From IMG/VR virus record IMGVR_UViG_2541047952_000002: a stretch of DNA of 24,461 nt, one strand, 5' to 3'. Below, one piece after another: positions 1 to 20,975 of this stretch (position 1 is its first letter; the number at the start of each line of letters is the position of its first letter). Below the pieces are notes generated by a model, which was given only the letters and a program-made list of their open reading frames with translations, did no database searches and was not told the origin of the DNA. The stretch comes from a virus (Duplodnaviria > Heunggongvirae > Uroviricota > Caudoviricetes). Position numbers and translations under genes: made by a program.

Positions 1-1053
1 TTACGGGGTAATGCCAACCGCTGCCGCCACTTTGTCGCCACTTGGCAGCGTTGCCAGAGGATTGAAACGGAGCGCCGTTTCCAGATGATCCGGTGCCAGA
101 TGTGCGTAACGCATAGTCATTTTTATATCGTGATGTCCGAGGATTTTTTGCAAAGCAAGGATATTTCCACCCGACATCATGAAATGCGCCGCAAACGTAT
201 GGCGCAGAACGTGTGTCAGTTGACCGCGAGGGAGCACGATAGACGTTTTTTCCATCACGGATAAAAATTGAAAATAGCAGTCTGTAAAGAAATTGAACCC
301 ATCAAGCGCCATGATCTCTTCGTAAAGCTCTTTACTGATAGGGATGCTCCTGTTTTTCTTCCCCTTCGTTCTTACAAAGGTAATTCGGTATTTGGTCACC
401 TGTGAGCGGGTAAGATTTATTGCTTCTCGCCAGCGTGCGCCTGTGCTTAGGCATATCTTGACTACCAGTGCCAGAATTGGGTTCTGACGTTTGCAGTCAG
501 ACAGTAATTCGATAATCTGCTCATGTGTAAGCCATGCCATTTCCTTTTCTGCGATAGTGAATTTGCGCATCTTCTCTAATGGGTTTGGAAGTGTCCATTC
601 ACCCAGGCGGGAAAGTTCTCTGAAAACGCTGCTTAGATGGCTTTGCTCCAGGTTAACAGTAACTGGGCTTGCTCCTTTCTTCCATTTTTCACTGAAGTAG
701 ATTTCACCAGTAAGGCGTTTATCGCGATAGTGAGCAAACATTTTTGAGGTGAGATCAGTTGCAAGGGGATTTCCCAAGGCGTCAACCATCAACAGCAGCT
801 TGTTGTAGACATTCTGTCCGGCAGTAAGAGATTTGCCATGTAATTTGAACCATAGCTCAACCATATCTTTCAGTGTCCGACGATCCACTGATTCGCCCAG
901 CCAGGGCTTTGCTTCTATTTCCCCCATGGTGTATCGCTCGAAGGCCAGTGCTTCGCCTTTGGTGGCGAATTGTTTACGCACACGACGCCCATTACGTCCG
1001 GCGGGGTAACATTCGCAAAGCCATTTCCCTGTGGTGAGTTTTCGTACTGCCAT
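1..1053 (-). CDS. int: Tyrosine site-specific integrase (P2/186 Int family)
   Basis: ORF 1..1209 (-). C-terminal 'HVLRHTFAAHFMMSGGNILALQKILGHHDIKMTMRYAHL' fits the tyrosine recombinase H-x-x-R ... Y catalytic signature. N-terminal 'GRNGRRVRKQFATKGEALAFE' resembles P2 Int. Start moved to in-frame ATG at 1051-1053 (~350 aa) preceded by GGAGGG; the 52-codon upstream extension to 1209 is probably non-coding. Confidence 0.88.
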   Translation of the reverse strand: MAVRKLTTGKWLCECYPAGRNGRRVRKQFATKGEALAFERYTMGEIEAKPWLGESVDRRTLKDMVELWFKLHGKSLTAGQNVYNKLLLMVDALGNPLATDLTSKMFAHYRDKRLTGEIYFSEKWKKGASPVTVNLEQSHLSSVFRELSRLGEWTLPNPLEKMRKFTIAEKEMAWLTHEQIIELLSDCKRQNPILALVVKICLSTGARWREAINLTRSQVTKYRITFVRTKGKKNRSIPISKELYEEIMALDGFNFFTDCYFQFLSVMEKTSIVLPRGQLTHVLRHTFAAHFMMSGGNILALQKILGHHDIKMTMRYAHLAPDHLETALRFNPLATLPSGDKVAAAVGITP

Positions 1054-1241
1054 AAAAAATGCCCTCCAGTAGAGAGCATTTTCACTGTATGTATAACCAG
1101 TGTCAATGTATGAAATCCTACGACCATACATCTCACTGAAGCCATAATTAAGTTGGCTATTCTTTTTGCTATGTGAGCATGTAACTTTTGCGGTTAACCT
1201 GCGGCTCATTTTTATTTTAGGCGCAGATATAAAAGCAAAAG

Positions 1242-1448: not shown

Positions 1449-2024
1449 CTATTTAACATACTTGACTGTTAAACTTATAATTTTACCAATTATTTCAATG
1501 TCTTCTATCTTGCATTCGAAGGCTCTGTTTCCACCCTCGACGAAGATTCTTCCACCGGGTAAACGAGTAATGTCACGGATCGTTATTTCGCCATCAATAC
1601 TTATTACCCATTTACCATCACGTATATCATCAAATTCCTTATCACAAATAAATTCAGAATTATTATCTGTGATTACAAAAAGATTCTTGAATGCCGACGG
1701 TAGAAATTCCCTATCGAAAATATAAAAACCGTCTTCACACAAGGCCCCATCAGATAATACATATTTAGCAACTTCCATAGTATTTGTATTACCTGAAGTT
1801 TGCTTTGAACCATGCCCGGTTGTGAGCCAATTAAGCGAGGTGCCCGTTTCAAGGGCGCACTGGATTACCCATTCTGCGGGGAATGAGTCACGCATGTAAC
1901 GTGTGGCGAGTGTACTTTTAGAGATTCCTAAATGATCGCACAACGCCTGTCGAGTCTTGAATCCATAAGCTTCTACCATGCGCTCTATAGCGCCTCGTCC
2001 GCCTTTCTCCAAATTCATGGTCAC
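1449..2024 (-). CDS. cI: Phage immunity repressor, 186 CI-like (HTH N-terminal domain + C-terminal domain)
   Basis: 191 aa, divergent from the cox-like early operon and directly upstream of int. N-terminal HTH-like segment 'AYGFKTRQALCDHLGISKSTLATRYMR'. Size matches 186 CI (~190 aa), not P2 C (~99 aa). Confidence 0.7.
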   Translation of the reverse strand: MTMNLEKGGRGAIERMVEAYGFKTRQALCDHLGISKSTLATRYMRDSFPAEWVIQCALETGTSLNWLTTGHGSKQTSGNTNTMEVAKYVLSDGALCEDGFYIFDREFLPSAFKNLFVITDNNSEFICDKEFDDIRDGKWVISIDGEITIRDITRLPGGRIFVEGGNRAFECKIEDIEIIGKIISLTVKYVK

Positions 2025-2391: not shown

Positions 2392-2907
2392 TTGACCATG
2401 TTTGATTACCAAGTTTCCAAACATCCACATTTTGATGAAGCCTGTCGTGCATTCGCACTGCGCCACAATCTGGTGCAACTGGCAGAACGTGCAGGCATGA
2501 ATGTGCAGATTCTGCGGAACAAACTGAACCCAGCTCAACCTCATTTATTAACCGCACCAGAAATTTGGTTGCTTACCGATCTGACTGAAGATTCAACGCT
2601 GGTAGATGGTTTTCTGGCACAGATTCATTGTCTGCCATGTGTTCCGATTAATGAGGTGGCAAAAGAGAAACTACCGCATTACGTCATGAGTGCAACTGCA
2701 GAGATAGGTCGTGTCGCGGCAGGTGCGGTTTCTGGAGATGTAAAAACCAGTGCAGGCCGTCGTGATGCTATCAGCAGCATTAACTCTGTTACACGACTGA
2801 TGGCGCTGGCTGCTGTTTCATTGCAGGCCCGTTTACAGGCTAATCCTGCGATGGCGAGTGCAGTTGATACCATGACCGGCCTTGGTGCTTCATTCGGTTT
2901 GCTGTGA
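2392..2907 (+). CDS. Phage regulatory protein, 186 CII-like (HTH)
   Basis: 171 aa, second gene of the early operon. HTH-like '[19 protein letters not shown]'. Size and position match 186 CII (~169 aa). Confidence 0.55.
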
Positions 2908-3420: not shown

Positions 3421-3487
3421 CCAACTAATGAAATTAATGGCGTAAACCCGCCGGGCATCCCTTTATCTAAATTCAGGAGAATTGATT

Positions 3488-3721: not shown

Positions 3722-3948
3722 TGGCTGATGCAATGGATCTCGTACAGCAGCGCGTTGAAGAAGAACGCCAACGCCATATCCGTGCTGCCCGTGCCAAAAC
3801 GCCGGGCGTGTCCCGCGTGCTTTGCATTGAGTGTGAAGCGCCAATTCCGCCAGCACGCCGCCGTGCCATTCCGGGTGTGCAGCTTTGCATTACCTGTCAG
3901 GAAATCGCAGAGCTGAAAGGCAAACATTACAACGGAGGTGCTGTATGA
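3721..3948 (+). CDS. TraR/DksA-family C4 zinc-finger protein
   Basis: 75 aa with C-x2-C...C-x2-C ('CIECEAPIPPARRRAIPGVQLCITCQ'), typical of the phage/plasmid TraR/DksA zinc-finger family. Translationally coupled to flanking genes. Confidence 0.7.
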   Translation: MADAMDLVQQRVEEERQRHIRAARAKTPGVSRVLCIECEAPIPPARRRAIPGVQLCITCQEIAELKGKHYNGGAV

Positions 3949-4802
3949 GCACCATCCTGAAATGGGCGGGAAATAAAACTGCCATAATGTCCGAACTGAA
4001 AAAACATCTTCCTGCTGGCCCGCGACTGGTTGAACCTTTCGCGGGTTCCTGTGCTGTGATGATGGAGACGGATTATCCCAGCTATCTGGTTGCGGATATT
4101 AATCCTGATTTAATCAACATCTATAAAAAGGTTGCCGCTGATTGTGAATCGTTTATATCTCGCGCCAGAGTTTTATTTAAGGAAGCAAACAGGGAGGTGG
4201 CTTATTACAACATAAGGCAGGAGTTTAATTACTCAACTGAAATTACTGATTTCATGAAAGCGGTATATTTCCTGTATCTCAATCGTCACGGTTACCGTGG
4301 TTTATGTCGCTATAACAAGAGCGGGCATTTCAACATTCCCTACGGTAATTATAAAAATCCGTATTTCCCTGAAAAAGAAATTCGCGCATTTGCAGAAAAG
4401 GCCCAGCGAGCAACGTTTATCTGCGCCAGCTTTGATGAAACGCTGGCGATGTTGAAGGCGGGGGATGTGGTGTATTGCGATCCGCCGTATGACGGTACGT
4501 TTTCCGGCTATCACACTGACGGCTTCACTGAAGATGACCAGTATCACCTGGCATCTGTTCTTGAACATCGGTCATCAGAAGGACATCCGGTCATTGTTTC
4601 TAACAGTGACACATCCCTGATCCGTTCGCTGTATCGCAATTTTACTCACCACTACATCAAGGCAAAACGCAGCATCGGTGTGGCAGCTGGCGAGGGTAAA
4701 TCAGCAACAGAAATCATTGCTGTTTCCGGGCCGCGCTGCTGGGTGGGATTTGATTATTCGCGTGGCGTGGATAGTTCTGCCGTGTACGGAGTACGTGCAT
4801 GA
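3945..4802 (+). CDS. dam: DNA adenine methyltransferase, Dam-like (N6-adenine MTase; GATC specificity inferred)
   Basis: ORF 3885..4802 trimmed to ATG 3945 (GGAGG 6 nt upstream, overlaps preceding stop). Motifs 'LKWAGNK', 'EPFAGS' (AdoMet binding), '[16 protein letters not shown]', 'PYFPE', 'FAEKAQ', 'VVYCDPPY' (catalytic DPPY), 'VSNSDT' are collinear with E. coli Dam as I recall it. Confidence 0.85.
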
Positions 4803-7213
4803 GTCATGCCGATATGAACAACTGCTGCGGCTTTAACGAAGCTGCCGCATCGTTCTCATGGAACAGCCCGAAAAAGGCCATTAACCCTTATCTGGACCCG
4901 GTGGAAGTTGCGCCGGTTTCTACGCTTTCAAACCTGATCACTCTGTACGCTGCCGATAACGAGCAGGAACAGCTGCGCCGTGAGGCGCTGAGTGATCAGG
5001 TCTGGGAGCGTTATTTCTTTAATGAATCCCGTGATCCTGTCCAGCGCGAAATGGAACAGGATAAGCTCATTAGTCGGGCAAAGCTGGCGCATGAGCAGCA
5101 GCGTTTTAATCCGGATATGGTCATTCTGGCGGACGTCAACGCCCAGCCCTCCCATATCAGCAAGCCGCTGATGCAACGTATTGAATATTTCAGCAGCCTG
5201 GGCAGGCCAAAGGCTTATTCCCGCTATTTGCGTGAGACGATTAAGCCATGTCTGGAACGACTGGAGCATGTCCGCGACTGTCAGCTATCCACTTCTTTTC
5301 GCTTTATGGCAAGCCATGAAGGGCTGGATGGCCTGCTTATCCTGCCTGAAATGAGTCAGGATCAGGTGAAGCGCCTGTCTACCCTTGTCGCTGCGCATAT
5401 GAGCATGTGCCTTGATGCCGCTTGTGGTGATTTGTATGCCACCGATGACGTTAAGCCAGAGGAAATCCGCAAAACATGGGAAAAGGTGGCAGCGGAAACC
5501 CTGCGTCTGGATGTTATTCCGCCTGCGTTTGAGCAACTCCGTCGGAAAAGAAACCGCCGTAAACCCGTGCCCTATGAACTCATTCCGGGTTCGTTGGCGC
5601 GTATGTTGTGTGCCGACTGGTGGTATCGGAAATTATGGAAGATGCGTTGCGAATGGCGGGAAGAGCAGTTGCGTGCTGTCTGCCTGGTCAGCAAAAAAGC
5701 ATCCCCCTATGTCAGCTATGAAGCCGTGATGCATAAACGTGAGCAGCGCCGTAAGTCGCTGGAGTTTTTCCGTTCTCATGAACTGGTGAACGAAGACGGC
5801 GACACGCTGGATATGGAAGATGTGGTAAACGCCAGCAGCAGCAACCCGGCGCATCGCCGCAATGAGATGATGGCCTGTGTTAAAGGTCTGGAGCTTATCG
5901 CGGAAATGCGCAGTGACTGCGCCGTTTTCTACACTATCACCTGTCCGTCGCGTTTCCATTCCACGCTCAATAACGGCAGACCCAACCCGACCTGGACAAA
6001 CTCGACGGTAAGACAAAGCAGCGACTATCTGGTCGGCATGTTTGCTGCATTTCGTAAGGCGATGCACAAAGCCGGATTGCGCTGGTATGGCGTGCGGGTG
6101 GCTGAGCCGCATCATGACGGTACAGTTCACTGGCACCTGTTGTGTTTTATGCGCAAAAAAGACCGCCGCGCCATCACTGCATTACTGCGTAAGTTTGCCA
6201 TCCGTGAAGACCGCGAGGAGCTGGGCAATAACACTGGGCCGCGCTTTAAGTCTGAGTTGATTAACCCGCGCAAAGGAACGCCGACAAGCTACATCGCGAA
6301 ATATATCAGTAAGAACATTGACGGGCGTGGTCTGGCTGGCGAGATCAGCAAGGAAACGGGTAAATCTCTGCGTGATAACGCTGAATACGTTAATGCCTGG
6401 GCGTCTCTGCATCGTGTTCAGCAATTCCGCTTCTTTGGCATTCCGGGGCGTCAGGCTTACCGTGAACTGCGATTGCTGGCTGGTCAGGCGGCAAGGCAAC
6501 AGGGTGACAAAAAAGCAGGTGCTCCGGTACTGGATAACCCGCGCCTTGATGCCATTCTGGCTGCTGCTGATGCTGGCTGTTTTGCCACCTACATTATGAA
6601 GCAGGGCGGCGTGTTGGTTCCCCGCAAATATCACTTGATCAGAACCGCTTATGAAATCAACGAAGAGCCGACCGCCTATGGCGATCACGGCATTCGTATT
6701 TATGGCATCTGGTCACCCATTGCAGAGGGCAAGATCTGCACTCATGCAGTGAAGTGGAAAATGGTTCGTAAGGCCGTTGACGTTCAGGAGGCGGCAGCCG
6801 ACCAGGGCGCTTGCGCCCCTTGGACTCGTGGCAATAACTGTCCCCTTGCTGAAAATTTGTACCAACAAGGGAAAGACAAATCAGCTGATGGAGATACCAG
6901 AACGGATATCACCCGCATGGATGACAAGGAGTTGCACGATTACCTGCACAGTATGAGCAAAAAAGAGCGCCGGGAACTGGCTGCAAGGTTACGCCTGGTG
7001 AAACCGAAACGGCGTAAAGACTACAAACAGCGAATTACAGACCATCAGCGACAGCAGCTCGTCTATGAACTGGAGTCCAGAGGATTTAATGGCAGCGAGA
7101 AAGAGGTCGATTTACTCCTTCGCGGCGGCAGTATTCCGTCAGGAGCAGGTCTGCGTATCTTCTATCGGAACCAGCGTTTGCAGGAAGATGATAAGTGGCG
7201 AAACCTGTATTAA
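4799..7213 (+). CDS. A: Replication initiation endonuclease gpA (HUH rolling-circle initiator)
   Basis: 804 aa. Start ATG overlaps dam stop (ATGA). HUH motif '[15 protein letters not shown]' and catalytic tyrosine motif '[11 protein letters not shown]' as in P2 A. Confidence 0.9.
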
Positions 7214-7305: not shown

Positions 7306-7325
7306 TACTGTAAATATAAACAGTG
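7306..7325 (+). promoter_or_regulatory. LexA (SOS) box upstream of the tum/DinI-like module
   Basis: TACTGTAAATATAAACAGTG contains CTGT-N8-ACAG and matches 17 of 20 positions of the consensus TACTGTATATATATACAGTA. It lies 42 bp upstream of ATG 7367, with TTTACA (7283-7288) as a possible -35. Confidence 0.6.
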
Positions 7326-7366: not shown

Positions 7367-7555
7367 ATGCAGGACTATTTTTTGGAGTCTTTGAAGCTCC
7401 AGCGCATTGATTTTTTTCTTAAGCTTGTAGCGGCTAGTGAGTGTAGTGATGAAGAGAAGGGGCTGGCTTTGCAGTGGGTTTCTGAACTGACAGATGAACT
7501 CATGGCAAAAATCAGAAGCCACGAATACAACCGCTCAATGGATGTCATCAGCTGA
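7367..7555 (+). CDS. Hypothetical small protein (62 aa), first gene of the LexA-controlled module; possible Tum-like antirepressor component
   Basis: ORF 7265..7555 trimmed to ATG 7367 preceded by GGAGGA. Position downstream of gene A and behind a LexA box parallels 186 tum. No motif recognised. Confidence 0.4.
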   Translation: MQDYFLESLKLQRIDFFLKLVAASECSDEEKGLALQWVSELTDELMAKIRSHEYNRSMDVIS

Positions 7556-7565
7556 GGGGACTTTT

Positions 7566-7799
7566 ATGCGCATTGAAATAATGATCGATAAAGAGCAGAA
7601 GATTAGCCAGTCTACCCTGGACGCCCTTGAATCCGAGCTTTACCGCAATCTGCGCCCCCTGTATCCCAAAACGGTAATTCGTATCCGTAAAGGTAGCTCT
7701 AACGGTGTGGAACTGACCGGACTGCAACTGGACGAAGAAAGGAAGCAAGTGATGAAAATTATGCAGAAGGTGTGGGAAGACGACAGCTGGCTGCATTAA
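7566..7799 (+). CDS. dinI: DinI-family protein
   Basis: ORF 7494..7799 trimmed to ATG 7566 (GAGGGGA upstream). 'MRIEIMIDKEQKISQSTLDALESELYRNL...' and C-terminal 'KVWEDDSWL' resemble E. coli DinI ('MRIEVTIAK...TWESADDWF'). Confidence 0.7.
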   Translation: MRIEIMIDKEQKISQSTLDALESELYRNLRPLYPKTVIRIRKGSSNGVELTGLQLDEERKQVMKIMQKVWEDDSWLH

Positions 7800-7807
7800 G
7801 AAACGTT

Positions 7808-7837
7808 GCCCCCAAGAGAATTTATTCTGATGGGGGC
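7808..7837. terminator. Hairpin between convergent dinI-like and GNAT genes (probable bidirectional terminator)
   Basis: GCCCCCAAGAGAAT-TT-ATTCTGATGGGGGC forms a long imperfect stem, followed by TAGTTTGGG. Confidence 0.45.
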
Positions 7838-7912
7838 TAGTTTGGGCAATGAGTGAAACAAGGCGTAAGGTGGTCGGCCTGTTGGCAGCGTTGAAAAGCG
7901 AAAGCCGCAATA

Positions 7913-8332
7913 CTATAAATTAGTTTTTATTAGATAGTGCCTTTGTGCTCCTGCTTTAGGGAAATCAGGTAATGACATTTGAAGTATATAACCCTGTTTT
8001 TCATAAAAGGGGAGCGCCTGGAAGCTAAATGTATCGACAAGGCCATGAATACAACCGTTCATCACACCTTCTTTCTCAGCCATGCTCATAAGTTTGCTAC
8101 CCAAACCGCCACTCCGTGTTGATTCACTCACCCAAAGATAATCAATACACAGCCATGGGCCTTTCCTGTTCGCAATTAATCCACCTACCATCTCGCCGAT
8201 TTCATTTCTGCAGTAAACACCGATCTGTCCATTTTTACTAAAATCGATAAACTGAGCATTATAGCTTCTTAGCCCAGCTAACAGTTCTTCTCTATCATAT
8301 TCAGTAACTTTATTAACTACTTGAATGTCCAT
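7913..8332 (-). CDS. GNAT-family N-acetyltransferase (139 aa), cargo gene
   Basis: Acetyl-CoA-binding-type motif '[17 protein letters not shown]' (R/Q-x-x-G-x-G/A), then 'FYEKQGY'. AT-rich, opposite strand to neighbours. Confidence 0.7.
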
Positions 8333-8548
8333 ACATATCCGTTTTAGTGATTATTTTATTTAGTGCTAAATGTTATAGATAAGTTTCCTTTGTGTTTCAA
8401 TACATTGTTGTAAATTAAATCAATTTACCATTTCCAGGTCCGTTCCTTGCTCACAGCGAACCTTTACCTTTGTTAGCTCGAATGTGTCGTATTCAAACGG
8501 TCATTCAGATACGGATTTTCACTTCCCTTAGATTGTGCATGACTATGC

Positions 8549-8680
8549 CGCATGAATCTGCATGATCGTTTGAGGATCGTTTTTGCTAAGGCCCACCAGA
8601 ACTGGCGGGCTTTTGCGTAGATCATGCAGGTGCATGAAAACCACTACATAAAGCGGGCAGGCGTGGCGGGGATACGAGCG
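8549..8680. other. Candidate cos/packaging region: inverted repeats, terminator-like hairpin and a cos-like GGCGTGGCGGGGA motif
   Basis: GGCGTGGCGGGGA (8660-8672) matches the first 13 nt of the 186 cohesive end as I remember it (GGCGTGGCGGGGAAAGCAT; P2 GGCGAGGCGGGGAAAGCAC), then diverges. Upstream are a 17-nt imperfect inverted repeat (CATGAATCTGCATGATC 8551-8567 / GATCATGCAGGTGCATG 8620-8636) and a GC hairpin plus T-run (8591-8614). Confidence 0.3.
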
Positions 8681-8803
8681 CGCGCACGTGGCTTCTAGAC
8701 ATATATCAGAGGCTTTGTTTCAATCGTAATTTATTAAATTGATTATGTTTGAATGATTTGTCATATTCTATAAGTGTTCAAGATGGCAATAAGAGGTGTC
8801 TTA

Positions 8804-10405
8804 ATGTTTGAAATTCCGAAGGCTGATGGTTCTAGCTTTGAATTGAAGTTGGCTCCTGGAGAGGTTGTTTTCTTGTTAGGACCAAATGGTTCCGGAAAGT
8901 CTTCTATAATTGATTTTCTATACAAAAAATATCCTAATAGATTTGAGAAAATAATTGCGCATAGACAAAATTGGATTCAGTCTAACAGATCTAACGTATC
9001 CAATCATGAGAGTCATCAAACATCAGGTTATATTAAGAGTTGGGATTCGCAGGAGGAGTCAAGATACAAAGATGATTATTCCGGTCGTAGAACAGAGATC
9101 TTACTGAACAAAATAATCTCTGCAGAGAATCATGCAGCCAGAACTTTTGTCAATAATTTCTCCCTAGCTTCTCGCGAGGGGCGTGGTAATTTAACTCTTA
9201 CGGAAACACCAGTTGAGAAAATTAATAGATGCCTGAATGAAGCTTTTATTAATATTACGATAAGAATAGATGATTCGGATTCTTTGTTGGTAAGTCGCAA
9301 TGGCTCTGATGAATATAGCTTGGCTCAGCTTTCTGACGGAGAAAGAAATGCAATATTTATTGCAATTGCCATTTTTACAGCCCCAGACGGCGCCTTTTTT
9401 TTAATCGATGAGCCAGAGAGGCATTTGCATCCTTCAATATCTCATTCGTTGATTAAATCTCTTTTAAATGAGCGCCCCGATTGTGGATATGTAATATCCA
9501 CACATGATTTATCTTTGCCATCAGCAGTACCTCATTCCAGAGTGTTGTTGCTGAGAGATTGCGTGTATGAAAATATGCGACCAGTTCGTTGGTATATAGA
9601 CGCAATTGACTCATTGGCGGAAATTGATGAGAGGCTTCGAGAAGACATACTTGGGTCAAGGAAAAAAATAATCTTTGTTGAGGGTAATACATCATCAAGC
9701 TTAGACCAGAAGCTATACTCGATAATTTTTCCAGGTTATTCGGTAATACCAAAAGCTAGTTGCGATTATGTCGAGCGTTCTGTGGATGGTCTGAGAGAGT
9801 CGGAAAATCTTCATCATGTAATTCCATATGGTATTATTGATAATGATAATAAACCTGAACGACAGGTTTCAAATCTTGAAATGAAAGGGGTTTATTCTTT
9901 AAATGTGCACTCAATTGAATCAATATACTATCATCCGGAATTAATTTTAAACGTAATTAATAATTATAAGGATTCTCAAAATATATCGGACCCCGATGCA
10001 TTATATGCGCAGTTGTGTGACGAGTCATTGTCCATGCTTTCCGAGCACAAAGAAAGACTATGCTGTAGAGCAATAGAGAAAGCCATTAGGTCTAAGCTAT
10101 TTTCGAATTTGCCAACTTTGAGAAGTATTGAAGCGGGGAATGATGTTAATATAAATATTAACGTTGGTGATTTTTTGAGAGAAGAAATTGTCTTTTTTGA
10201 AAACTGTCTACGTCAGCAAGATCTCATCAGTTTAGTCGAAAAATATCCAATTCGTGAAACTGCTTATATCGCTAAGGTGCATAAGCTATTGGGGTATTCA
10301 ACGCGTCAACTTTACGAGCATAATCTTTTACGCCTTGTAACGTCGAATTCTGAGGTGAAAAATATTGCCAAAAGGCTGATTGGCAATATTTGCAATGTTA
10401 TATGA
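8804..10405 (+). CDS. Solitary ABC-type ATPase fused to a Toprim-like nuclease domain (OLD-family / PARIS AriAB-like candidate anti-phage protein)
   Basis: ORF 8774..10405 (GTG) trimmed to ATG 8804, 7 nt after AAGAGG. Walker A 'GPNGSGKS', ABC signature-like 'LSDGERN', Walker B plus His 'FFLIDEPERHLHPS'. C-terminal half has 'KKIIFVEGNTSS' (Toprim glutamate) and 'GIIDNDNK' (DxD). Strongly AT-rich. Confidence 0.8.
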   Translation: MFEIPKADGSSFELKLAPGEVVFLLGPNGSGKSSIIDFLYKKYPNRFEKIIAHRQNWIQSNRSNVSNHESHQTSGYIKSWDSQEESRYKDDYSGRRTEILLNKIISAENHAARTFVNNFSLASREGRGNLTLTETPVEKINRCLNEAFINITIRIDDSDSLLVSRNGSDEYSLAQLSDGERNAIFIAIAIFTAPDGAFFLIDEPERHLHPSISHSLIKSLLNERPDCGYVISTHDLSLPSAVPHSRVLLLRDCVYENMRPVRWYIDAIDSLAEIDERLREDILGSRKKIIFVEGNTSSSLDQKLYSIIFPGYSVIPKASCDYVERSVDGLRESENLHHVIPYGIIDNDNKPERQVSNLEMKGVYSLNVHSIESIYYHPELILNVINNYKDSQNISDPDALYAQLCDESLSMLSEHKERLCCRAIEKAIRSKLFSNLPTLRSIEAGNDVNININVGDFLREEIVFFENCLRQQDLISLVEKYPIRETAYIAKVHKLLGYSTRQLYEHNLLRLVTSNSEVKNIAKRLIGNICNVI

Positions 10406-10407
10406 TT

Positions 10408-10429
10408 TTCCGCCTCCTAGGAGGCGGAA
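10408..10429. terminator. Perfect 22-bp palindrome between ATPase-Toprim gene and portal gene Q (probable bidirectional terminator)
   Basis: TTCCGCCTCCT|AGGAGGCGGAA is perfectly self-complementary. It lies 2 nt after the ATPase-Toprim stop and 10 nt before the Q stop. Confidence 0.5.
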
Positions 10430-10439
10430 TTATTGTCTG

Positions 10440-11474
10440 CTAAAGTGCGTAGCTTGAAAAAAGTATAATTTCATCAGCCAACCAGTTGTTTAATTCACTG
10501 AGCCTTTTCTGCAGCGGCATCAGCTCGTTGCGGACAAAGACGCGGCTGGCCTTTTCCACATCACCAAAGCCGCCTGTGTTGTTGGGGATAATCCCCATCA
10601 TCTGCGGCGGTACTCGGTGCGCCGCCATCATGTCATCCCGGCTCACATTCTTGATATTCAAAAACTCATCCTTTGCCGCCACCTCTGACAGTGGGATGAT
10701 CTGAATGCCGTCCTTTTTGCCGTTGGGCGAGTACATAAACAGGTTGCGAAAATTGCCCGGCCCTTTGGCGCTTTTCATGGCCTGGCGGATGTTGTTCACG
10801 TCTTCCTGATTCTGCGCGGCGTCGGTCATGTACATGATAAAACCCGCGTGGCTGCCGTTGATGTAGTACTTCCGGCGGAACAGAGTAGCGGACTCATTCA
10901 GCAAGGCGGAAGGGATGGCGGACAGGTATTCCGGCAGGCCATAAATCTCCTGGTTCAGGTCCGGCTCCATCAGGTGAAAGATGCTGCCTTTGGTGAACTC
11001 GTAGGGCTGCGTGGTCATGCCGTATTGCACAAACCAGTAAGTGTCTAGGTCGATCCCGCGGCGGGTGTATTTCGCCAGTGATGGCTCCAGCGACAGAATG
11101 CCGCCCAACCGGTTCGTCCGTTTCTCCAGGTAGGCATTACCGAACACCAGATAGTCCTGCACGAAACGGCTGAATGCCTGCTGACTTAATAGCGGGTGCG
11201 GAATGAACGTGCTGGTCAGAATGTTGCGCTTAACGGCAATCGGTGAGCTGTGATGTATGGCGGCACGGTAAGTGCGGGCCAGGCCGTCAAAGCTCACGGG
11301 CGGCTCATACCACTTATCCATCTGCACACATTCTACGTAGTCCAGGAGTTCGCGGCGGTCCAGTACCGGGATGGGGTCGCCAAAGCTGAACGCTTCGACG
11401 TGAGTTGTGTTCTTCTGCTGTACGGTTTCCTGCACTGGCGCGATGCGGGTAAGGGCGTCGTGTTCACTCATCAA
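10440..11474 (-). CDS. Q: Portal (capsid portal vertex) protein gpQ
   Basis: 344 aa, same length as P2 Q. 'FSFGDP' N-terminal region. Start overlaps terminase stop (ATGA). Divergent from the O-N-M-L operon as in P2. Confidence 0.9.
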   Translation of the reverse strand: MMSEHDALTRIAPVQETVQQKNTTHVEAFSFGDPIPVLDRRELLDYVECVQMDKWYEPPVSFDGLARTYRAAIHHSSPIAVKRNILTSTFIPHPLLSQQAFSRFVQDYLVFGNAYLEKRTNRLGGILSLEPSLAKYTRRGIDLDTYWFVQYGMTTQPYEFTKGSIFHLMEPDLNQEIYGLPEYLSAIPSALLNESATLFRRKYYINGSHAGFIMYMTDAAQNQEDVNNIRQAMKSAKGPGNFRNLFMYSPNGKKDGIQIIPLSEVAAKDEFLNIKNVSRDDMMAAHRVPPQMMGIIPNNTGGFGDVEKASRVFVRNELMPLQKRLSELNNWLADEIILFSSYAL

Positions 11475-13237
11475 AAAATCTCCACAATGTTGCTGGTATT
11501 GGCGGCTTCGCCCTGAAGCGGTTCGTTAAACAGTGCGTGCATCGTTGCCCAGGCCAAGTCTGCGTGGCTGGCTTCTTCACTGCGGCTGGCTTCGTATGTA
11601 GGGCGGTTTCCGCTGGCGGTAGTGGCGCGGCGGATAGCCATAAAGGACTGCGCAATGTCGGTGTGTCCCGCGTCAAACTCCAGACGCCGGTGGCTGATAA
11701 TGTCGTATGCCTTGAGCACCAGGGCGTTTTTGACGTTGGGGTTGTAGACAAACTCCCGCACAGCAGGAAAGAACGCTTTCACGTTCTCGTAGACACCGTG
11801 ACCGACGCCGGTTGAGTCGATACCGATATAGGTCACGTTGTACTGCTGCGTCAGCTTTTTGATAGCGTCCGCCTGGGCGCGGAAGTCCATCCCGCGCCAC
11901 TGGTGCCGCTCAAGAATGCGGAACTTGCCGCCCGGTACGGTTGGTGGTGCGACCACCACGCACCCGGCGCTGTCACCGTTCTGCGTGCCTTTCGCCGGGT
12001 CGTATCCGATCCAGACTTCGCGCCAGCCAAACGGGCGCAGCGCCAGCGCCTGAAAATCGGACCACACTTCCCAACTGTCCACCATGCACGCCTGCAGCTC
12101 GCTGAGCGGAAACACGGACGCGAGATCGTCCACAAACTCGCACATCAGCAGGTTCTGGTATTCGTCCGGGCTGTACTCCATGCGCAACTGGTCAAGGTCG
12201 AACAGGTTACAGCCGCCGCGCACCGCATCTTCCACGGTGACTATCTGGCGGTATTGCCCGTCTGCGCACAGCAGGCCGGGGGCCAGATTGCTGTGGGACA
12301 GGTCGATGTCCACCTTGTCGGCCTTGTTGCGCCCACGGTTGAACAGCGCACCGGACCAGAACGGATAAGCACTGTGTGTCAGGCTGGATGGCGTGGAAAA
12401 ATAGGTCTGTCGCCATTTCTTGTGAATAGCCATACCGGAAGCCACTTTGCGCAGCTCCTGGAATTTCGGTATCCAGAAATATTCATCCAGATACAGGTTG
12501 CCGTGATAACTCTGGGCCGTGCGGGCATTGGTGCCGAGGAAGTAAAGCGTGGCCCCGTTGGGAAGCACCATCGGATCACCTTTCAGCTCCACCTCCACTT
12601 CTTTGGCGAAGTCGATGATGTACTGCTTAAAGACGTGGGCCTGTGCCTTGCTTGCGGAAAGGAAAATCTGGTTACGTCCGGTCAGCAGAGCGTCAATCAG
12701 GGCTTCACGGGCAAAATAGAAGGTCGCGCCGATCTGGCGTGACTTCAACAGGTTGCGGATGCGGTTGGTTTTTCCGGCTTCCCACCAGTGGCGCTGGTAG
12801 TTGAACATGGAGGAATGGAAGATTTCTTCCAGCTTCTCAATCTGTTCATCGGTGAAAACGTTCTTTTCCGGCTGACGGCGCGGGCCTTTGTTGCGGTTGG
12901 CGACGTTAGGGTTTAAGTCGGCTTCGTTGCCGCCATTGTTAAACTTGCCGATCCGCGCATGGCGCTCCGACTGGCGCGCCAGCAGGTCAATCTCTTTGAA
13001 ATCTTTCCCTTCTTTGTGCTCCTTCATAATGAGCTGGCAGTAGCGTGCGGCGGTGGTGAGCTGCATCTGATCCAGCGGCCCATAGTCACCCCACTTGTCG
13101 CGTTTTTTCCAGCTGTGAACGGTTGCAACTTTCTCGCCCAGCATTTCAGCAATGCGGGCTACGCGGTATCCCTGAAAGTACAGCAGCATGGCCTGCCGAC
13201 GGGGATCGAGATCTGCGGGTGTCAGTGTGGTGTTCAT
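11471..13237 (-). CDS. P: Terminase large (ATPase) subunit gpP
   Basis: 588 aa, upstream of and translationally coupled to Q. Position and size match P2 P (~590 aa). Confidence 0.88.
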   Translation of the reverse strand: MNTTLTPADLDPRRQAMLLYFQGYRVARIAEMLGEKVATVHSWKKRDKWGDYGPLDQMQLTTAARYCQLIMKEHKEGKDFKEIDLLARQSERHARIGKFNNGGNEADLNPNVANRNKGPRRQPEKNVFTDEQIEKLEEIFHSSMFNYQRHWWEAGKTNRIRNLLKSRQIGATFYFAREALIDALLTGRNQIFLSASKAQAHVFKQYIIDFAKEVEVELKGDPMVLPNGATLYFLGTNARTAQSYHGNLYLDEYFWIPKFQELRKVASGMAIHKKWRQTYFSTPSSLTHSAYPFWSGALFNRGRNKADKVDIDLSHSNLAPGLLCADGQYRQIVTVEDAVRGGCNLFDLDQLRMEYSPDEYQNLLMCEFVDDLASVFPLSELQACMVDSWEVWSDFQALALRPFGWREVWIGYDPAKGTQNGDSAGCVVVAPPTVPGGKFRILERHQWRGMDFRAQADAIKKLTQQYNVTYIGIDSTGVGHGVYENVKAFFPAVREFVYNPNVKNALVLKAYDIISHRRLEFDAGHTDIAQSFMAIRRATTASGNRPTYEASRSEEASHADLAWATMHALFNEPLQGEAANTSNIVEIF

Positions 13238-13379: not shown

Positions 13380-14213
13380 ATGACAGTGAAAGCAAAGCGT
13401 TTTCGCATCGGGGTGGAAGGTGCCACCACCGACGGACGCGAAATCCAGCGTGAATGGCTGGAACAGATGGCAGCCAGCTACAACCCGGCGGTGTATACCG
13501 CGCTGATTAACCTTGAGCACATCAAGTCTTATCTGCCGGACAGCACCTTTAACCGCTACGGCAAGGTGACGGCGCTGTTTGCTGAAGAAATCACGGAAGG
13601 TCCGCTGGCAGGCAAGATGGCATTGTATGCCGACGTTGAGCCAACGGAGTCCCTGGTGGAACTGGTGAAAAAAGGCCAGAAATTATTCACCTCTATGGAA
13701 GTCAGCCCTAAGTTCGCTGATACGGGCAAAGCCTACCTGGTTGGACTGGCCGCCACTGATGATCCAGCCAGTCTGGGTACGGAAATGCTGACATTCAGCG
13801 CCAGTGCAGCCCATAACCCGCTGGCAAACCGCAAGCAGAATCCCGCCAATCTTTTTACCGCTGCAGAGGAAACAGTGATCGAACTGGAAGAAGTCCAGGA
13901 CGAAAAAACATCCCTGTTTGCCCGTGTCACGGCGCTGTTCACCAAAAAAGAGCAGTCCGATGATGCCCGGTTCTCTGATGTGCATAAGGCCGTGGAGCTG
14001 GTCGCCACTGAGCAGCAAAACCTGAGTGCGCGCACCGAAAAATCCCTGTCTGAACAGGAAGAACGCCTGTCTGAGCTGGAGACAGCCCTGCAGGCACAGT
14101 TGACCGCCTTTAACGAACTGGTGGACAAGCTGAGCCATGAAGACAGCCGCCAGGACTACCGCCAGCGTGCAACAGGCGGTAACGCCCCCGCTGACACTCT
14201 GACCAATTGCTGA
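13380..14213 (+). CDS. O: Capsid scaffolding protein gpO
   Basis: 277 aa, first gene of the rightward head operon, acidic coiled-coil-like C-terminal region. Position and size as P2 O. Confidence 0.85.
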   Translation: MTVKAKRFRIGVEGATTDGREIQREWLEQMAASYNPAVYTALINLEHIKSYLPDSTFNRYGKVTALFAEEITEGPLAGKMALYADVEPTESLVELVKKGQKLFTSMEVSPKFADTGKAYLVGLAATDDPASLGTEMLTFSASAAHNPLANRKQNPANLFTAAEETVIELEEVQDEKTSLFARVTALFTKKEQSDDARFSDVHKAVELVATEQQNLSARTEKSLSEQEERLSELETALQAQLTAFNELVDKLSHEDSRQDYRQRATGGNAPADTLTNC

Positions 14214-14229
14214 TGGAGCACAAAACCTG

Positions 14230-15288
14230 ATGAAGAAGAATACCCGCTTTGCTTTTAACGCTTACCTGCAGCAGCTGGCGCGTCTGAACGGTGTGGCAGT
14301 TGAAGAACTGTCCAGCAAGTTCACCGTGGAGCCGTCTGTACAGCAGACGCTGGAAGACCAGATCCAGCAGTCCGCCTCTTTCCTGACGCTGATTAACGTC
14401 ACACCAGTGACTGAGCAGTCTGGTCAGTTGCTGGGGCTGGGTGTTGGCAGCACCATTGCCGGAACCACTGATACCACCGCGAAAGAGCGAGAACCTGTCG
14501 ATCCGACGCTGATGGTCGATGTGGAATACAAATGCGAACAGACCAACTTTGACACGGTGCTGACCTACGCGAAGCTGGACCTGTGGGCGAAGTTTCAGGA
14601 TTTCCAGGTGCGTATCCGTAACGCCATCGTGAAACGTCAGGCACTGGACCGCATCATGATCGGCTTTAACGGCGTGAAGCGTGCGAAAACCTCCAACCGT
14701 AGCGAAAACCCGCTGCTGCAGGATGTGAACAAAGGCTGGCTGCAGAAAATCCGTGAGGATGCACCGGATCACGTCATGGGCAGCACCACCACGGGCGGTG
14801 AAACCACACCGGGCGCGGTGAAAGTCGGTAAAGGTGGCGAATATGCCAACCTGGACGCCGTAGTGATGGATGCCGTCAATGAGCTTATCGACGTGGTCTA
14901 CCAGGACGATGACGATCTGGTGGTGATTTGCGGTCGTGAACTGCTGTCTGACAAGTATTTCCCGCTGGTCAACAAAGAGCAGGAAAACAGTGAAAAACTG
15001 GCTGCCGATATGATCATCAGTCAGAAACGCATGGGTGGCCTGCAGGCCGTGCGTGCGCCGTTCTTCCCGCCGAATGCACTGCTGATCACCCGTCTGGATA
15101 ACCTGTCCATCTACTGGCAGGAAGACACCCGCCGCCGTTCAGTTATCGACAACCCGAAACGTGACCGGATTGAAAACTTTGAATCCGTTAACGAAGCCTA
15201 TGTGGTTGAGGACTACCGCTGCGCTGCACTGGTGGAAAACATCCAGATTGGCGATTTCAGCGCCGCTGCAGCAGAAGTCGGAGCGTAA
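14230..15288 (+). CDS. N: Major capsid protein gpN
   Basis: 352 aa. N-terminus 'TRFAFNAYLQQLARLNGV...KFTVEPSVQQTL' resembles P2 N. Position after O. Confidence 0.9.
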   Translation: MKKNTRFAFNAYLQQLARLNGVAVEELSSKFTVEPSVQQTLEDQIQQSASFLTLINVTPVTEQSGQLLGLGVGSTIAGTTDTTAKEREPVDPTLMVDVEYKCEQTNFDTVLTYAKLDLWAKFQDFQVRIRNAIVKRQALDRIMIGFNGVKRAKTSNRSENPLLQDVNKGWLQKIREDAPDHVMGSTTTGGETTPGAVKVGKGGEYANLDAVVMDAVNELIDVVYQDDDDLVVICGRELLSDKYFPLVNKEQENSEKLAADMIISQKRMGGLQAVRAPFFPPNALLITRLDNLSIYWQEDTRRRSVIDNPKRDRIENFESVNEAYVVEDYRCAALVENIQIGDFSAAAAEVGA

Positions 15289-15291: not shown

Positions 15292-15942
15292 ATGAGCCTG
15301 AGTCCCGCACGGCAGCATCGCCTGCGCGTTCAGGCTGAACAGGCCGCCCGCGAGGGCGGCAGCGTTCGCCACGCGTCGGGCTATGACCTGATGCTGCTGC
15401 AACTGGCGGAAGACCGCCGCCGTCTCAAGGGCGTTCAGTCCACGGTCAAAAAAGCGGAAATCAAGGTGGAACTGCTGCCGAAGTACGCCGCCTGGGCAGA
15501 GGGTGTCCTGACTGCCGGAGGCGCACAGCAGGATGACGTGCTGATGTACGTGATGCTGTGGCGCATTGATGCCGGAGATTATGCCGGGGCGCTGGAGATC
15601 GGGCGTCACGCCCTGCGTCATGGCTGGGTGATGCCGTTGGGTAACCGCAACGTGCAGACCGTGCTGGCAGAGGAAATAGCAGACGCCGCGCAGAGCGCAA
15701 TGCTTGCCGCCACCGGCTTTGATGCAGATCTGTTGCTGCAGACGCTGGAGCTGACAGACGGTCTGGATATGCCGGACCAGTCACGGGCGCGTCTGCATAA
15801 AGCGATTGGCGCAGTCCTGAGTGAAAGCAATCCGGCTTCCGCCCTTAATCATCTCAACCATGCGTTACAGCTCGATCCCCGCTGTGGCGTGAAAAAAGAC
15901 AAACAGCAGCTGGAGCGCAGACTGCGCAATGACAGCCGCTGA
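15292..15942 (+). CDS. M: Terminase small (endonuclease) subunit gpM
   Basis: 216 aa, immediately after N. Position as P2 M. Confidence 0.8.
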   Translation: MSLSPARQHRLRVQAEQAAREGGSVRHASGYDLMLLQLAEDRRRLKGVQSTVKKAEIKVELLPKYAAWAEGVLTAGGAQQDDVLMYVMLWRIDAGDYAGALEIGRHALRHGWVMPLGNRNVQTVLAEEIADAAQSAMLAATGFDADLLLQTLELTDGLDMPDQSRARLHKAIGAVLSESNPASALNHLNHALQLDPRCGVKKDKQQLERRLRNDSR

Positions 15943-16037
15943 CAGAACGTGCCCCCGCGCACGGGCGGCACGGGGTGGCGAAAGGCACTGCCACATCAAA
16001 ACCCCGTCCACCGCCCTCTATTTCAGGAGAAAGCAGC

Positions 16038-16502
16038 ATGAAGTTTGTTGCGCCAGAACAGGCACCGGAACAGGCGGAAATCATCAGAAATACGCCGTTC
16101 TGGCCTGATGTGGACCTGTCGGAGTTCCGCAGTGTGATGCGCACTGACGGCACGGTGACGCAGCCGCGTTTAAAGCAGGTTGCGCTGTCGGCAATTTCGG
16201 AGGTCAACGCAGAGCTGTATGAGTTTCGCAGACGCCAGCAGATGCTGGGATATGCCTCGCTGGCAGAGGTTCCGGCGGAACAGCTGGACGGCAAAAGTGA
16301 GCGCATTCAGCACTATTTCAACGCGGTTTACTGCTGGGCACGCGCCATGCTCAACGAACGATACCAGGACTATGACGCCACGGCATCCGGTGTGAAGCGG
16401 GGCGAAGAACTGGCAGAAGCCAGCGGTGATTTGTGGCGTGACGCCCGCTGGGCCATCAGCCGGGTACAGGATGCGCCGCACTGCACAGTGGAGCTTATCT
16501 GA
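16038..16502 (+). CDS. L: Head completion/stabilisation protein gpL
   Basis: ORF 15975..16502 (GTG) trimmed to ATG 16038, 8 nt after AGGAGA. 'ELYEFRRRQQ...LWRDARWAISRVQ' resembles P2 L. Confidence 0.8.
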   Translation: MKFVAPEQAPEQAEIIRNTPFWPDVDLSEFRSVMRTDGTVTQPRLKQVALSAISEVNAELYEFRRRQQMLGYASLAEVPAEQLDGKSERIQHYFNAVYCWARAMLNERYQDYDATASGVKRGEELAEASGDLWRDARWAISRVQDAPHCTVELI

Positions 16503-19005: not shown

Positions 19006-19659
19006 CTAATCCATAAATGGTTCAAGAATTGGACCTAATTCAGCATCTTCCATAATGATCCATCTGCAAAATGATGAAAAAGCTGCGTCTCTTTTTATCA
19101 TCATCTTCATTTTTTCAATTAAGTATTTTTTTTGTTCTGTTGGAGTATCTTCTTCATAATATTCATTAATATTTTTAATTAGTTTTTGGGTTGTTTTCAC
19201 TACTTGAGTACGAAGTGCCGCAGAAGTTAATTTTTTACTCATGGTATGATCGCTATTATATACTTTCTCAAGTAACTCTGCGGTCGTCTGCGTTTCAATA
19301 TCATTAAATAGTGCTGTTACTGTTATTTTTTTTGCTTTATAAGAATATCCTGGGAGTAATTTTACTCGATCCCATACCTTTTCTTTACAGCAATCAAGAA
19401 TGTTGTCATATTTTGATAGTTTTATATTGTTACATCTGGAACATGATAGATATAAATTATCCCAATCAAAAGCTCTTTCCACATCATCACCCTTGGGTTT
19501 AAAATGTTCAATGTTTATATCCAAAGGGTTCTTTGTTTCGCAAATGTAACATTTTCCATAAAAGCATTCCTGTAGTGCTTCATGTACATCAGCACCATCA
19601 TAACGTGCTTTCTTGGAAAGAGACTTTGGTGCAGGATATGTTCTATTAACCTTGAACAT
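19006..19659 (-). CDS. HNH endonuclease (217 aa), second gene of an ATPase + HNH pair (Septu PtuB-like)
   Basis: HNH-type motif 'CYICETKNPLDINIEHFKPK...FDWDNLYLSCSRCNNIK' (C-x2-C ... H ... N ... C-x2-C-N). Start ATG overlaps the upstream ATPase stop by 1 nt (TAATG). Very AT-rich. Confidence 0.8.
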   Translation of the reverse strand: MFKVNRTYPAPKSLSKKARYDGADVHEALQECFYGKCYICETKNPLDINIEHFKPKGDDVERAFDWDNLYLSCSRCNNIKLSKYDNILDCCKEKVWDRVKLLPGYSYKAKKITVTALFNDIETQTTAELLEKVYNSDHTMSKKLTSAALRTQVVKTTQKLIKNINEYYEEDTPTEQKKYLIEKMKMMIKRDAAFSSFCRWIIMEDAELGPILEPFMD

Positions 19660-20888
19660 TATTTCTCCTGAGAATTTGCTTTTTTATATTTTAGTATCTG
19701 CATTTTTGCATAGTCAATAAATGCACTTGCATGGATGTCCATGGATTCATCTAAAGGTGCTAAGGATTGTATTATGTTATTGGCAGTTTCAATATTGTTG
19801 TTGTTAATATTGTCAATAATATCTTGAAGTTGTTCTAACTTATCTGAAAGAACTTTAGATATTGGACTTACTCCGAATAATTCTTGAAGGATGATACCAT
19901 AAGAATATGAAGACACATCACTAATTTTCGCGTTGGTCGATAGATCATAAATGATGGCATTTGTGACGGATGTAACAACAAACGGAGAATGTGTAGTGAC
20001 AATGAATTGTACTTTAGGAAAGGAGTGACTAAAAAATCTTAATATTTGCTTTTGCAAAGAAACATGTAAATGCGCATCTATTTCATCAATAAAAATAATA
20101 CCTTCGATACTGTCAGGTGTTAAACCCCACATTTCTACTCTCATTATTAAGTCAGCGTAAATTCTCAATATTGATGAGTGGCCAGAAGATAATGTTTGAA
20201 AAGTAAACTTATCTTTACCATCTTGATTGAGATAAAATTTTCCTTCGTTACTATCAAACGTTAGTAAGAGGTTTTTATCTTCAAAAAGTTCCTGCATATC
20301 AGTTTCAATTTTATCAAACCATTTCTGTATCCGCTGAGCTTTCTTATGGTCATTATCAAAAGAAATTGCATAGCTCTGAGCTGTTTTTAAACTAACCAAA
20401 TAATTCTCAAAGAAATCATCACCATCTACTTCATTAGAAAAATGTGATTTTTCATTAATTAAAGCCGATAGCCTAGGAACGGCAATTGGCGAGGTAATTG
20501 ATGCTTCACGTAGAGCTTTGTGAAATCTCAATAGTGAACGTGTTTCACCTTCTTTTTCTTTTGTTTCTATTCTAATGGCTTTTAATTGTTCAATTTTTAA
20601 TTCAATGTTTTTTATTTCTTCAGAATAAAAGTTGTAATTAACGTCGTCACGCCCGCCGTTATTTAAGTGATATTTGTAGGACTCTAACGTATTGTATAAA
20701 TTATTGATGTTATGATCATTAGGTCTATCTATCTTATTTTTAAGGAAATCATAAATAGATCTAATAAAACTAGTTTTTCCACACCCGTTACCACCAGTTA
20801 TTATGAGATTTTTACCGTCAAGCAATAAGTTTGCTGTCTTATTAGTGTATGGAATTGGAGCATAAATTTCATTTATTGATGTAAGCAT
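19659..20888 (-). CDS. ABC-type (AAA_15/AAA_21-like) ATPase (410 aa), first gene of an ATPase + HNH pair (Septu PtuA-like)
   Basis: ORF 19659..20987 trimmed to ATG at 20886-20888 (AAGGGA 7 nt upstream); the longer form would overlap the V start. Walker A 'GGNGCGKTS', 'LSSGHSSIL', Walker B plus His 'IIFIDEIDAHLHVS', 'FIVTTHSPF'. Confidence 0.8.
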   Translation of the reverse strand: MLTSINEIYAPIPYTNKTANLLLDGKNLIITGGNGCGKTSFIRSIYDFLKNKIDRPNDHNINNLYNTLESYKYHLNNGGRDDVNYNFYSEEIKNIELKIEQLKAIRIETKEKEGETRSLLRFHKALREASITSPIAVPRLSALINEKSHFSNEVDGDDFFENYLVSLKTAQSYAISFDNDHKKAQRIQKWFDKIETDMQELFEDKNLLLTFDSNEGKFYLNQDGKDKFTFQTLSSGHSSILRIYADLIMRVEMWGLTPDSIEGIIFIDEIDAHLHVSLQKQILRFFSHSFPKVQFIVTTHSPFVVTSVTNAIIYDLSTNAKISDVSSYSYGIILQELFGVSPISKVLSDKLEQLQDIIDNINNNNIETANNIIQSLAPLDESMDIHASAFIDYAKMQILKYKKANSQEK

Positions 20889-20897
20889 ATATTCCCT

Positions 20898-20915
20898 TGT
20901 ATCGTTAACAGTACA
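20898..20915 (+). promoter_or_regulatory. Candidate PV late-promoter Ogr/B box (TGT-N12-ACA)
   Basis: TGTATCGTTAACAGTACA lies ~60 bp upstream of the V start, with an A/T-rich -10 candidate (GATAATAAT) downstream. It starts 10 bp from the PtuA-like start codon on the opposite strand. Confidence 0.45.
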
Positions 20916-20975
20916 ACTACAACACTGATAATAATACAACTTATTGAGATACAGTTCACCTTTAAGGGGGGAAGG

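Follow-up and report, generated by a model that had tools for sequence, protein, structure and literature searches.

The cos sites of P2, 186, PSP3 and P4 carry 19-nt 5′ cohesive ends. A core of ~55 bp of the P2-family cos goes back to Ziermann & Calendar 1990, according to the passage of PMC5694545 in which that work is cited, and P4 has essentially only cos in common with P2 (PMC9122126). An experimental anchor is provided by the inducible prophage of Escherichia coli HS, the cos of which was located by Zund et al. 2021, who analyzed read start sites and used PhageTerm in cultures induced with mitomycin C; they give it as 5′-GGCGTGGCGGGGATACGAG-3′ at positions 926016-926034 (PMC8008629, Suppl. 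Table 4).

The DNA next to cos has been described repeatedly as a site of gene exchange. The interval between cos and the portal gene Q was proposed as a place for foreign genes, the examples being the retrons Ec67 and Ec86, which are carried by 186-like prophages (Dodd & Egan 1996), and ctx at the cos-Q position of phiCTX (Nakayama 1999), both as reported in the part of PMC5694545 that cites them. For E. coli, Rousset et al. 2022 reported 1,650 gene arrangements in the whole cos-proximal interval from gpA to gpQ, which they described as a hotspot of defence genes (PMC9122126), and a 2026 survey gives the same account (PMC13586616). The PARIS system, including its single-gene fusion form, was described in the same work of Rousset et al., where it was first found in the matching cos-adjacent hotspot of P4-like satellites (PMC9122126).

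Here, we analyzed a stretch of 24,461 nucleotides from a Caudoviricetes virus (IMG/VR record IMGVR_UViG_2541047952_000002), hereafter the window, in which an earlier sequence-only reading had placed a cos-like motif upstream of an ATPase-Toprim gene. Judging from sequence comparison, positions 8535-8686 are very probably the cos site of a Fels-2-type (Felsduovirus-like) temperate prophage of the P2 family. It is a cos of an already known functional type at the expected place, and it leaves the understanding of packaging in the P2 family unchanged.

Results

Gene content of the window

The genes and other features around the block, with their coordinates in the window, are as follows.

1-1209, minus strand: integrase
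1449-2024, minus strand: CI-type repressor
2392-2907, plus strand: CII-like regulator
3885-4802, plus strand: Dam methylase
4799-7213, plus strand: gpA replication protein
7308-7323, plus strand: perfect LexA box CTGTAAATATAAACAG, upstream of a small ORF and the DinI/Tum-like gene (together about 7367-7799)
about 7566-7799, plus strand: DinI/Tum-like gene
7913-8332, minus strand: GNAT acetyltransferase (Pfam Acetyltransf_1, 8e-10), left-arm cargo, at the predicted right end of the virion genome
8804-10405, plus strand: fused PARIS AriAB (ABC-type ATPase plus DUF4435/Toprim-like), right-arm cargo, at the predicted left end of the virion genome
10408-10429, plus strand: palindromic terminator-like hairpin (9-bp stem, 6 G-C pairs) between the AriAB and Q stops
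10440-11474, minus strand: portal Q, P2 gpQ homologue (Pfam Phage_portal), the conserved right border of the cargo slot
11471-13237, minus strand: terminase large subunit, gpP homologue (Pfam Terminase_6N, Terminase_6C, Terminase_5), the expected cos nicking enzyme
13380-14213, plus strand: scaffold O
14230-15288, plus strand: capsid N
15292-15942, plus strand: terminase small subunit, gpM homologue (PHROG 74, 1.6e-88), the expected cos-recognition subunit
15975-16502, plus strand: head-completion L

Both terminase subunits, the gpP-like large and the gpM-like small, are encoded by the same element as the putative cos (Pfam, PHROG), and their ORFs as well as that of the portal are intact. The site lies between the gpA side and the Q/P operon, in the order found in P2, 186, Fels-2, SEN8 and the E. 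coli HS prophage. The LexA box remarked upon earlier was confirmed as a perfect one, and its arrangement with the DinI/Tum-like gene matches that of the SOS-inducible tum of 186 and PSP3. The 120-aa ORF at 7548-7910 on the minus strand is probably no gene and represents only an antisense frame of DinI, because its tblastn matches track DinI in every locus.

Elsewhere in the window, a two-gene Septu system occupies 19006-20987 on the minus strand (PtuA, 19659-20987, PADLOC 2e-138; PtuB/HNH, 19006-19659, 5e-100). It is transcribed against the neighbouring late genes, just upstream of putative baseplate ORFs, and looks like a second cargo slot of the same prophage.

A predicted P2-family cohesive-end sequence between DinI and Q

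The following features were recognized in the region of the cos-like motif.

8535-8686, plus strand: putative cos module, a 152-bp conserved packaging block (identity profile, blastn matches)
8536-8565, plus strand: three direct GCATG(A) elements, TGCATGA 8536-8542, GCATGA 8550-8555 and TGCATGA 8559-8565 (conservation)
8564-8578, no strand: pair of conserved GATC sites, 8564-8567 and 8575-8578, with a distance of 11 bp (109 unique blocks)
8591-8614, plus strand: GC-rich hairpin GCCCACCAG-AA-CTGGCGGGC (8591-8610; 9-bp stem, loop AA) followed by TTTT (8611-8614)
8622-8642, plus strand: inverted TCATGCA 8622-8628, then direct TGCATGA 8631-8637 running into AAAACC (repeats, alignment)
8629-8685, plus strand: counterpart of the ~55-bp core, GGTGCATGAAAACC-N8-AAAGCGGGCA, 19-mer, CGCGCGC (gap-free alignment)
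8660-8678, plus strand: predicted 19-nt cohesive-end sequence GGCGTGGCGGGGATACGAG, 19/19 with the E. coli HS and SEN8 cos

The starting observation was a 13-mer, GGCGTGGCGGGGA, which our reading of the sequence from 8300 to 9100 confirmed at 8660-8672. It is the sole exact copy within the window, and by arithmetic ~7e-4 such copies are expected by chance in 24.5 kb, both strands included. The P2 and 186 ends to which it had been compared agree with the GenBank records, which give GGCGAGGCGGGGAAAGCAC for P2 cosL and GGCGTGGCGGGGAAAGCAT for the 186 cos. Extended to 19 nt, positions 8660-8678 fit the P2-family pattern of a G+C-rich cohesive end that starts with GGCG(A/T)GGCGGGGA. The first 13 bases are the same as in 186, and the full 19-mer is identical to the 186 and PSP3 sequences at 15 of 19 positions and to those of P2 and P4 at 14 of 19.

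We aligned the joined virion ends of P2, 186, PSP3, P4 and SEN8 with the window, Fels-2, Cartapus and vB_EcoM-813R9. The alignment to the P2 and 186 cos, which had been suggested as a check, revealed homology in the same register, position by position, with the annotated cos of P2, 186, PSP3 and P4. In the common architecture, three TGCAT(G) elements are followed by a GC hairpin, which is not evident in P2, and by CATGCA-NN-TGCATKAAAACC; then come eight variable bases, AAAGCGGGCR, the 19-nt overhang and GCGCGC. Over the core at 8629-8685, the window is identical to SEN8 at 56 of 57 positions, to PSP3 at 45, to P2 at 44 and to P4 at 43, and 186 falls within 43-45/57. As P4 shares essentially only cos with P2, the parts common to P2, P4 and the window are a reasonable proxy for the needs of the terminase. 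From the P2 and 186 annotations, nicks are predicted at 8659/8660 on the top strand and 8678/8679 on the bottom strand, which would generate 5′ overhangs.

The cos assignment is further backed by the identity of the 19-mer to the read-start-mapped cos of the E. coli HS prophage. We found this 19-mer at exactly 926016-926034 in NC_009800 (E. coli HS), which verifies the published coordinates; on one side it is flanked by the DinI-side gene and on the other by a gene for a 464-aa cargo protein and then the portal gene. Between the window and HS, 139 of the 152 positions of the block are identical, and 8602-8686 is 100% identical. The deposited SEN8 sequence opens with this 19-mer, which is called cos in the announcement of the genome. 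A cos elsewhere, for instance beside Q, had been named as the finding that would speak against this assignment; a search of the window found no second site adjoining Q and a single cos-like site overall.

A sharply bordered block amid variable DNA

A scan of IMG/VR for the exact 19-mer yielded 121 oriented loci, with 115 distinct 320-nt sequences and 109 unique blocks. Across the 115 distinct sequences, compared without gaps, identity to the window was 0.8-1.0 over about 8535-8686 and ~0.25 (random) outside, the drop being completed within one or two bases at each border. This conservation profile argues that the sequence features of the block are not due to chance. With blastn against phage records, only 8535-8686 was matched, at 91-97% identity, in Fels-2, SopEPhi, RE-2010, phages of E. 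coli and many phages of Klebsiella and Yersinia, and the block was identical at 152 of 152 positions to that of two related loci, L138 and L142.

In species-representative genomes, ~45 of the 54 matches to the 19-mer adjoin Q or A homologues. Its hosts comprise many genera of Enterobacterales plus Pasteurella and Chitinimonas. A few matches in unrelated MAGs do not have the flanking core and were set aside as chance.

The Betaproteobacterium Chitinimonas sp. BJB300 carries the 19-mer followed by CGCGCGC on five contigs of one assembly (L146, L147, L151, L152, L176), and C. taiwanensis carries the identical combination on three (L155, L179, L190), in one of which (L190) a P4-like integrase (51% identity) is encoded 3.8 kb away from the 19-mer. 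These copies could represent several P2-like or satellite elements, or contamination. A separate oddity is the viral contig L088 (IMGVR_UViG_3300011853_000021), on which the 19-mer occurs twice, at 3447-3465 on the minus and 6704-6722 on the plus strand, with a spacing of 3.2 kb.

In several public records, automatic annotation sets a ‘hypothetical protein’ or a pseudogene with an internal stop across the block; an example is 4253-4447 of L137 (E. coli SC480, NZ_LR778153.1). Such calls in the relatives are probably spurious, and the assignment of the block as cos would explain them.

Candidate recognition elements

Each of the three direct GCATG(A) elements is kept in ~90-100 of the 109 unique blocks while the spacers vary, and aligned TGCAT elements are also present in 186, PSP3, P2 and P4. 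The motif CATGCA-NN-TGCATKAAAACC is common to the window, 186 and PSP3 and is partly found in P4. Further conserved units are the AAAACC box ending at 8642, AAAGCGGGCA at 8650-8659 and CGCGCGC at 8679-8685. The window contains 10 TGCATG/CATGCA hexamers, 4 of which are in the 152-bp block (Poisson ~6e-7, by arithmetic). In a sliding-window analysis, the density of the pentamer TGCAT in the block was not exceptional, and the signal comes only from the hexamer and from position-specific conservation. The five GCATG(A) elements are probably terminase recognition (cosB-like) sites. The literature that we consulted, in which Ziermann & Calendar 1990 is represented by citation, yielded no demonstration of terminase binding to GCATG elements in P2-family phages.

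The sequence-only reading had also described a 17-nt imperfect inverted repeat. Its arms, CATGAATCTGCATGATC at 8551-8567 and GATCATGCAGGTGCATG at 8620-8636, are indeed present, complementary at 15 of 17 positions and each with a GATC. They do not, however, form one palindromic unit: the repeat is a by-product of the near-palindromic GCATG elements, arising because GCATGA elements face opposite ways, and its variable positions (8556-8559, 8620-8621 and 8629-8630) are exactly the non-conserved spacers. Another inverted repeat, I1 (8493-8510/8556-8573), is probably due to chance, given that its left arm lies in non-conserved DNA.

The GATC sites at 8564 and 8575 are each present in 100 of the 109 unique blocks, even where the spacer has been replaced, whereas the third, at 8620-8623, is not conserved (30/109). 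The pair is absent from the aligned cos regions of P2, 186, PSP3 and P4. The lineage carries its own Dam methylase gene beside gpA, and the stretch of PSP3 that we inspected has no annotated Dam. Dependence on adenine methylation is known for the pac site of P1. By analogy, two GATC sites one helical turn apart within the presumed recognition arm for the terminase could make recognition or cleavage of cos depend on adenine methylation, an idea that we consider quite unlikely; if true, it would tie packaging to the replication or methylation state in Fels-2-type phages.

A conserved hairpin upstream of the cut

The GC hairpin with its T-run, described earlier from the sequence, was confirmed at 8591-8614. 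The predicted folding energy is −18.2 kcal/mol (z = −3.5) in the window and −23.4 kcal/mol in the closest phage. The window hairpin has one A·C mismatch, at 8595/8606, to which we attribute its lower stability. A8595 is rare (~3% of related sequences, G being usual) and is found together with the GNAT left arm, both in the window and in L137, L138 and L142; it thus marks the GNAT recombination module. Pairing is retained at each stem position in 88-108 of the 109 unique blocks. In a handful of cases both partners of a pair have changed in a compensatory way, and conservation extends to the TTTT(G/T) tail.

Only four T follow the stable stem, and a scan with a consensus terminator did not call the hairpin. 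In relatives without left cargo, there is no other terminator-like site between DinI and cos, and in 186 the terminator t95b of the p95 transcript is located at a comparable place upstream of cos. For these two reasons we read the hairpin, with some uncertainty, as a probable terminator that would shield cos from rightward transcription. The uncertainty comes from the short T-run and from 186, PSP3 and P4, which have a hairpin in the aligned place but no T-run behind it; this leaves room for a DNA-level role in packaging. The counts of G·U-compatible versus A·C-type stem changes (about 32 vs 21 cells) do not separate an RNA from a DNA role. A terminator-like site on the minus strand, 8656-8641, was judged to be a by-product of the conserved CCAC...GCGG/AAAACC core.

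Cargo on both sides of the block

On the right, the gene at 8804-10405 probably starts at the ATG at 8804, preceded by AAGAGG. The match to the PADLOC AriAB model (8.4e-58) and to Pfam AAA_21 (5.7e-17), AAA_15, ABC_tran and DUF4435 (1.1e-9, residues 297-403) corresponds to the architecture of the single-gene PARIS fusion, with a predicted anti-phage role. With P2 Old, AriAB has only ATPase motifs in common. The identical protein is encoded in at least 24 contigs, always in the cos-to-Q slot. Among 5426 complete E. coli genomes, 1277 match part of 7800-10500 and none has AriAB at high identity; a search for AriAB in reference genomes gave no confirmed relative. On the left, GNAT is found in L082, L137, L138 and L142 and is absent from other relatives with the same right arm; the DNA upstream of GNAT, 8333-8534, is variable as well.

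The two sides can be exchanged separately, and natural recombinants have their breaks at the borders of the block. AriAB occurs with the GNAT arm in L138 and L142 and without it in L139-L141 and L143, which share only the right arm with the window and in which identity collapses at the left border of the block. The converse is seen in E. coli SC480 (L137), which shares the GNAT arm and the block, identity collapsing ~25 bp after the cut. Thus, the block stays constant as a hinge, and the cargo of the left slot varies independently of that of the right.

The distance from cos to the Q stop is P2-like (154-186 bp) in 9 related loci with the same 19-mer and 519-3532 bp, filled with cargo, in 76; in the window it is 1761 bp. 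The slot is also filled in Fels-2, SEN8, Cartapus, vB_EcoM-813R9 and E. coli HS. From the DinI stop to cos, the gap is at a minimum of 205-207 bp in 23 loci and longer in 55, and amounts to 860 bp in the window. In P2, the cos-to-Q gap measures 167 bp (cosL end at 19, Q stop at 187), not the ~100 bp given in the sequence-only reading, and in 186 it measures 176 bp. The suggestion that the window reveals a cargo position absent from P2 holds in so far as this slot is empty in P2, but the position is not new, being occupied in 76 of the 85 related loci. The location of cos between the gpA/DinI side and Q, with no second site, places GNAT at the right end of the predicted virion genome and the ATPase-Toprim gene at the extreme left, so that this part of the reading follows from the supported cos.

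Alternative explanations for the block

The block might be a relic in a defective prophage, homologous to cos and no longer cut or packaged in this strain. The window covers only 24.5 kb of a prophage the remainder of which could be defective, its hairpin has the rare A·C mismatch created by A8595, and defective relatives exist, as illustrated by the frameshifted gpA in the E. coli SC480 prophage. However, the segment 8602-8686 is identical to the site mapped from read termini in the HS phage, the block with A8595 recurs in several assemblies, and the window retains full-length ORFs for integrase, repressor, gpA, portal, both terminase subunits, scaffold, capsid and head completion. We regard a relic as unlikely.

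A very improbable reading is that the block is mainly a transcriptional control region, with promoters, operators and a terminator for the flanking cargo, and matches cos only incidentally. Such a role would suit a terminator-like hairpin located between two divergent genes, GNAT leftward and AriAB rightward, but the block stays constant while the flanking cargo changes completely, and the leaders of GNAT (8333-8534) and AriAB (8687-8803) are outside the block and travel with their own genes. Moreover, no sigma-70-like promoter was detected in a scan of 8250-8850, and an Rfam scan of 8200-8900 found no family inside the block and only a sub-threshold match to rpfG at 8241-8314. An origin of the site from a P4-like satellite integrated beside prophage genes, rather than from a P2-like phage, has a probability that we consider almost negligible. 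P4-type satellites do have the cos core in common with their helpers, and the Chitinimonas contig L190 combines the 19-mer with a P4-like integrase; against this, the cos of the window has gpA/DinI on one side and Q/P on the other within a single collinear P2-like genome, an arrangement also seen in Fels-2, SEN8 and HS, and among the 121 IMG/VR loci we found no P4-like satellite with the 19-mer and no homologues of Psu, Delta, Sid or alpha.

Discussion

With the block taken as the cos of a P2-like phage, packaging might proceed as follows. After excision and replication, the terminase, formed by the gpM homologue (15292-15942) and the gpP homologue (11471-13237), would recognize the block, most likely by way of two kinds of sequence left of the cut, the GCATG(A) elements and the TGCATGAAAACC box, and would introduce staggered nicks at 8659/8660 (top) and 8678/8679 (bottom). 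The packaged linear genome would then have 19-nt 5′ cohesive ends GGCGTGGCGGGGATACGAG, with AriAB (PARIS) as the first gene at the left, before Q, and GNAT as the last at the right. The hairpin with its T-run would probably halt transcription that reads through rightward out of the gpA/DinI (SOS) operon, or out of left cargo, before the cut. The block itself would act as a fixed hinge, with a cargo slot on either side that can be exchanged independently of the other; the two slots make up the known gpA-gpQ defence hotspot. The block might also serve as a homology hinge for the shuffling of left and right defence cargo between P2-like phages.

The cos at 8660-8678 orients the virion genome and identifies AriAB and GNAT as predicted terminal cargo, which is chiefly of value for annotation. 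With the borders at 8535 and 8686, the Fels-2-type packaging signal has a concise working definition, which could be used for finding helper-matched satellites or for building cosmids.

Comparison with known systems places the site closest to the cos of Fels-2-type phages (HS prophage, SEN8, Fels-2, RE-2010, SopEPhi, Cartapus, vB_EcoM-813R9), which have the same 19-mer, a block 91-100% identical to that of the window, the same cos position from the DinI side to Q and variable genes on both flanks. The window differs from them only in its cargo, with GNAT to the left of the block and a fused AriAB to the right, and in the rare A8595. The cos of P2, 186, PSP3 and P4 has the same register (TGCAT repeats, TGCATKAAAACC, AAAGCGGGCR, GGCGWGGCGGGGA..., GCGCGC), but the overhang differs at positions 14, 16, 17 and 19, reading ATACGAG in the window and AAAGCAY in these four, and only the Fels-2-type lineage has the GATC pair and a T-run behind the hairpin.

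The layout of the lambda cos (cosQ-cosN-cosB) and its 12-nt overhang are well established. The likeness to it is a functional analogy, comprising a two-subunit terminase, staggered nicks and recognition repeats that flank the nick site on a single side. The sequences themselves are not similar, the overhang measures 12 nt in lambda versus 19 nt here, and in the window the recognition side would come to lie at the right end of the mature genome and not near the terminase genes. As for the cargo, the slots around cos are the already described gpA-gpQ hotspot of P2-like phages, with the same placement of accessory and defence genes beside cos, including the cos-Q interval, here filled by PARIS, and no essential difference, so that the understanding of defence hotspots is unchanged. 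What the present comparison adds to the known hotspot is the definition of the borders of the constant block at base level and the independent assortment of the left and right slots.
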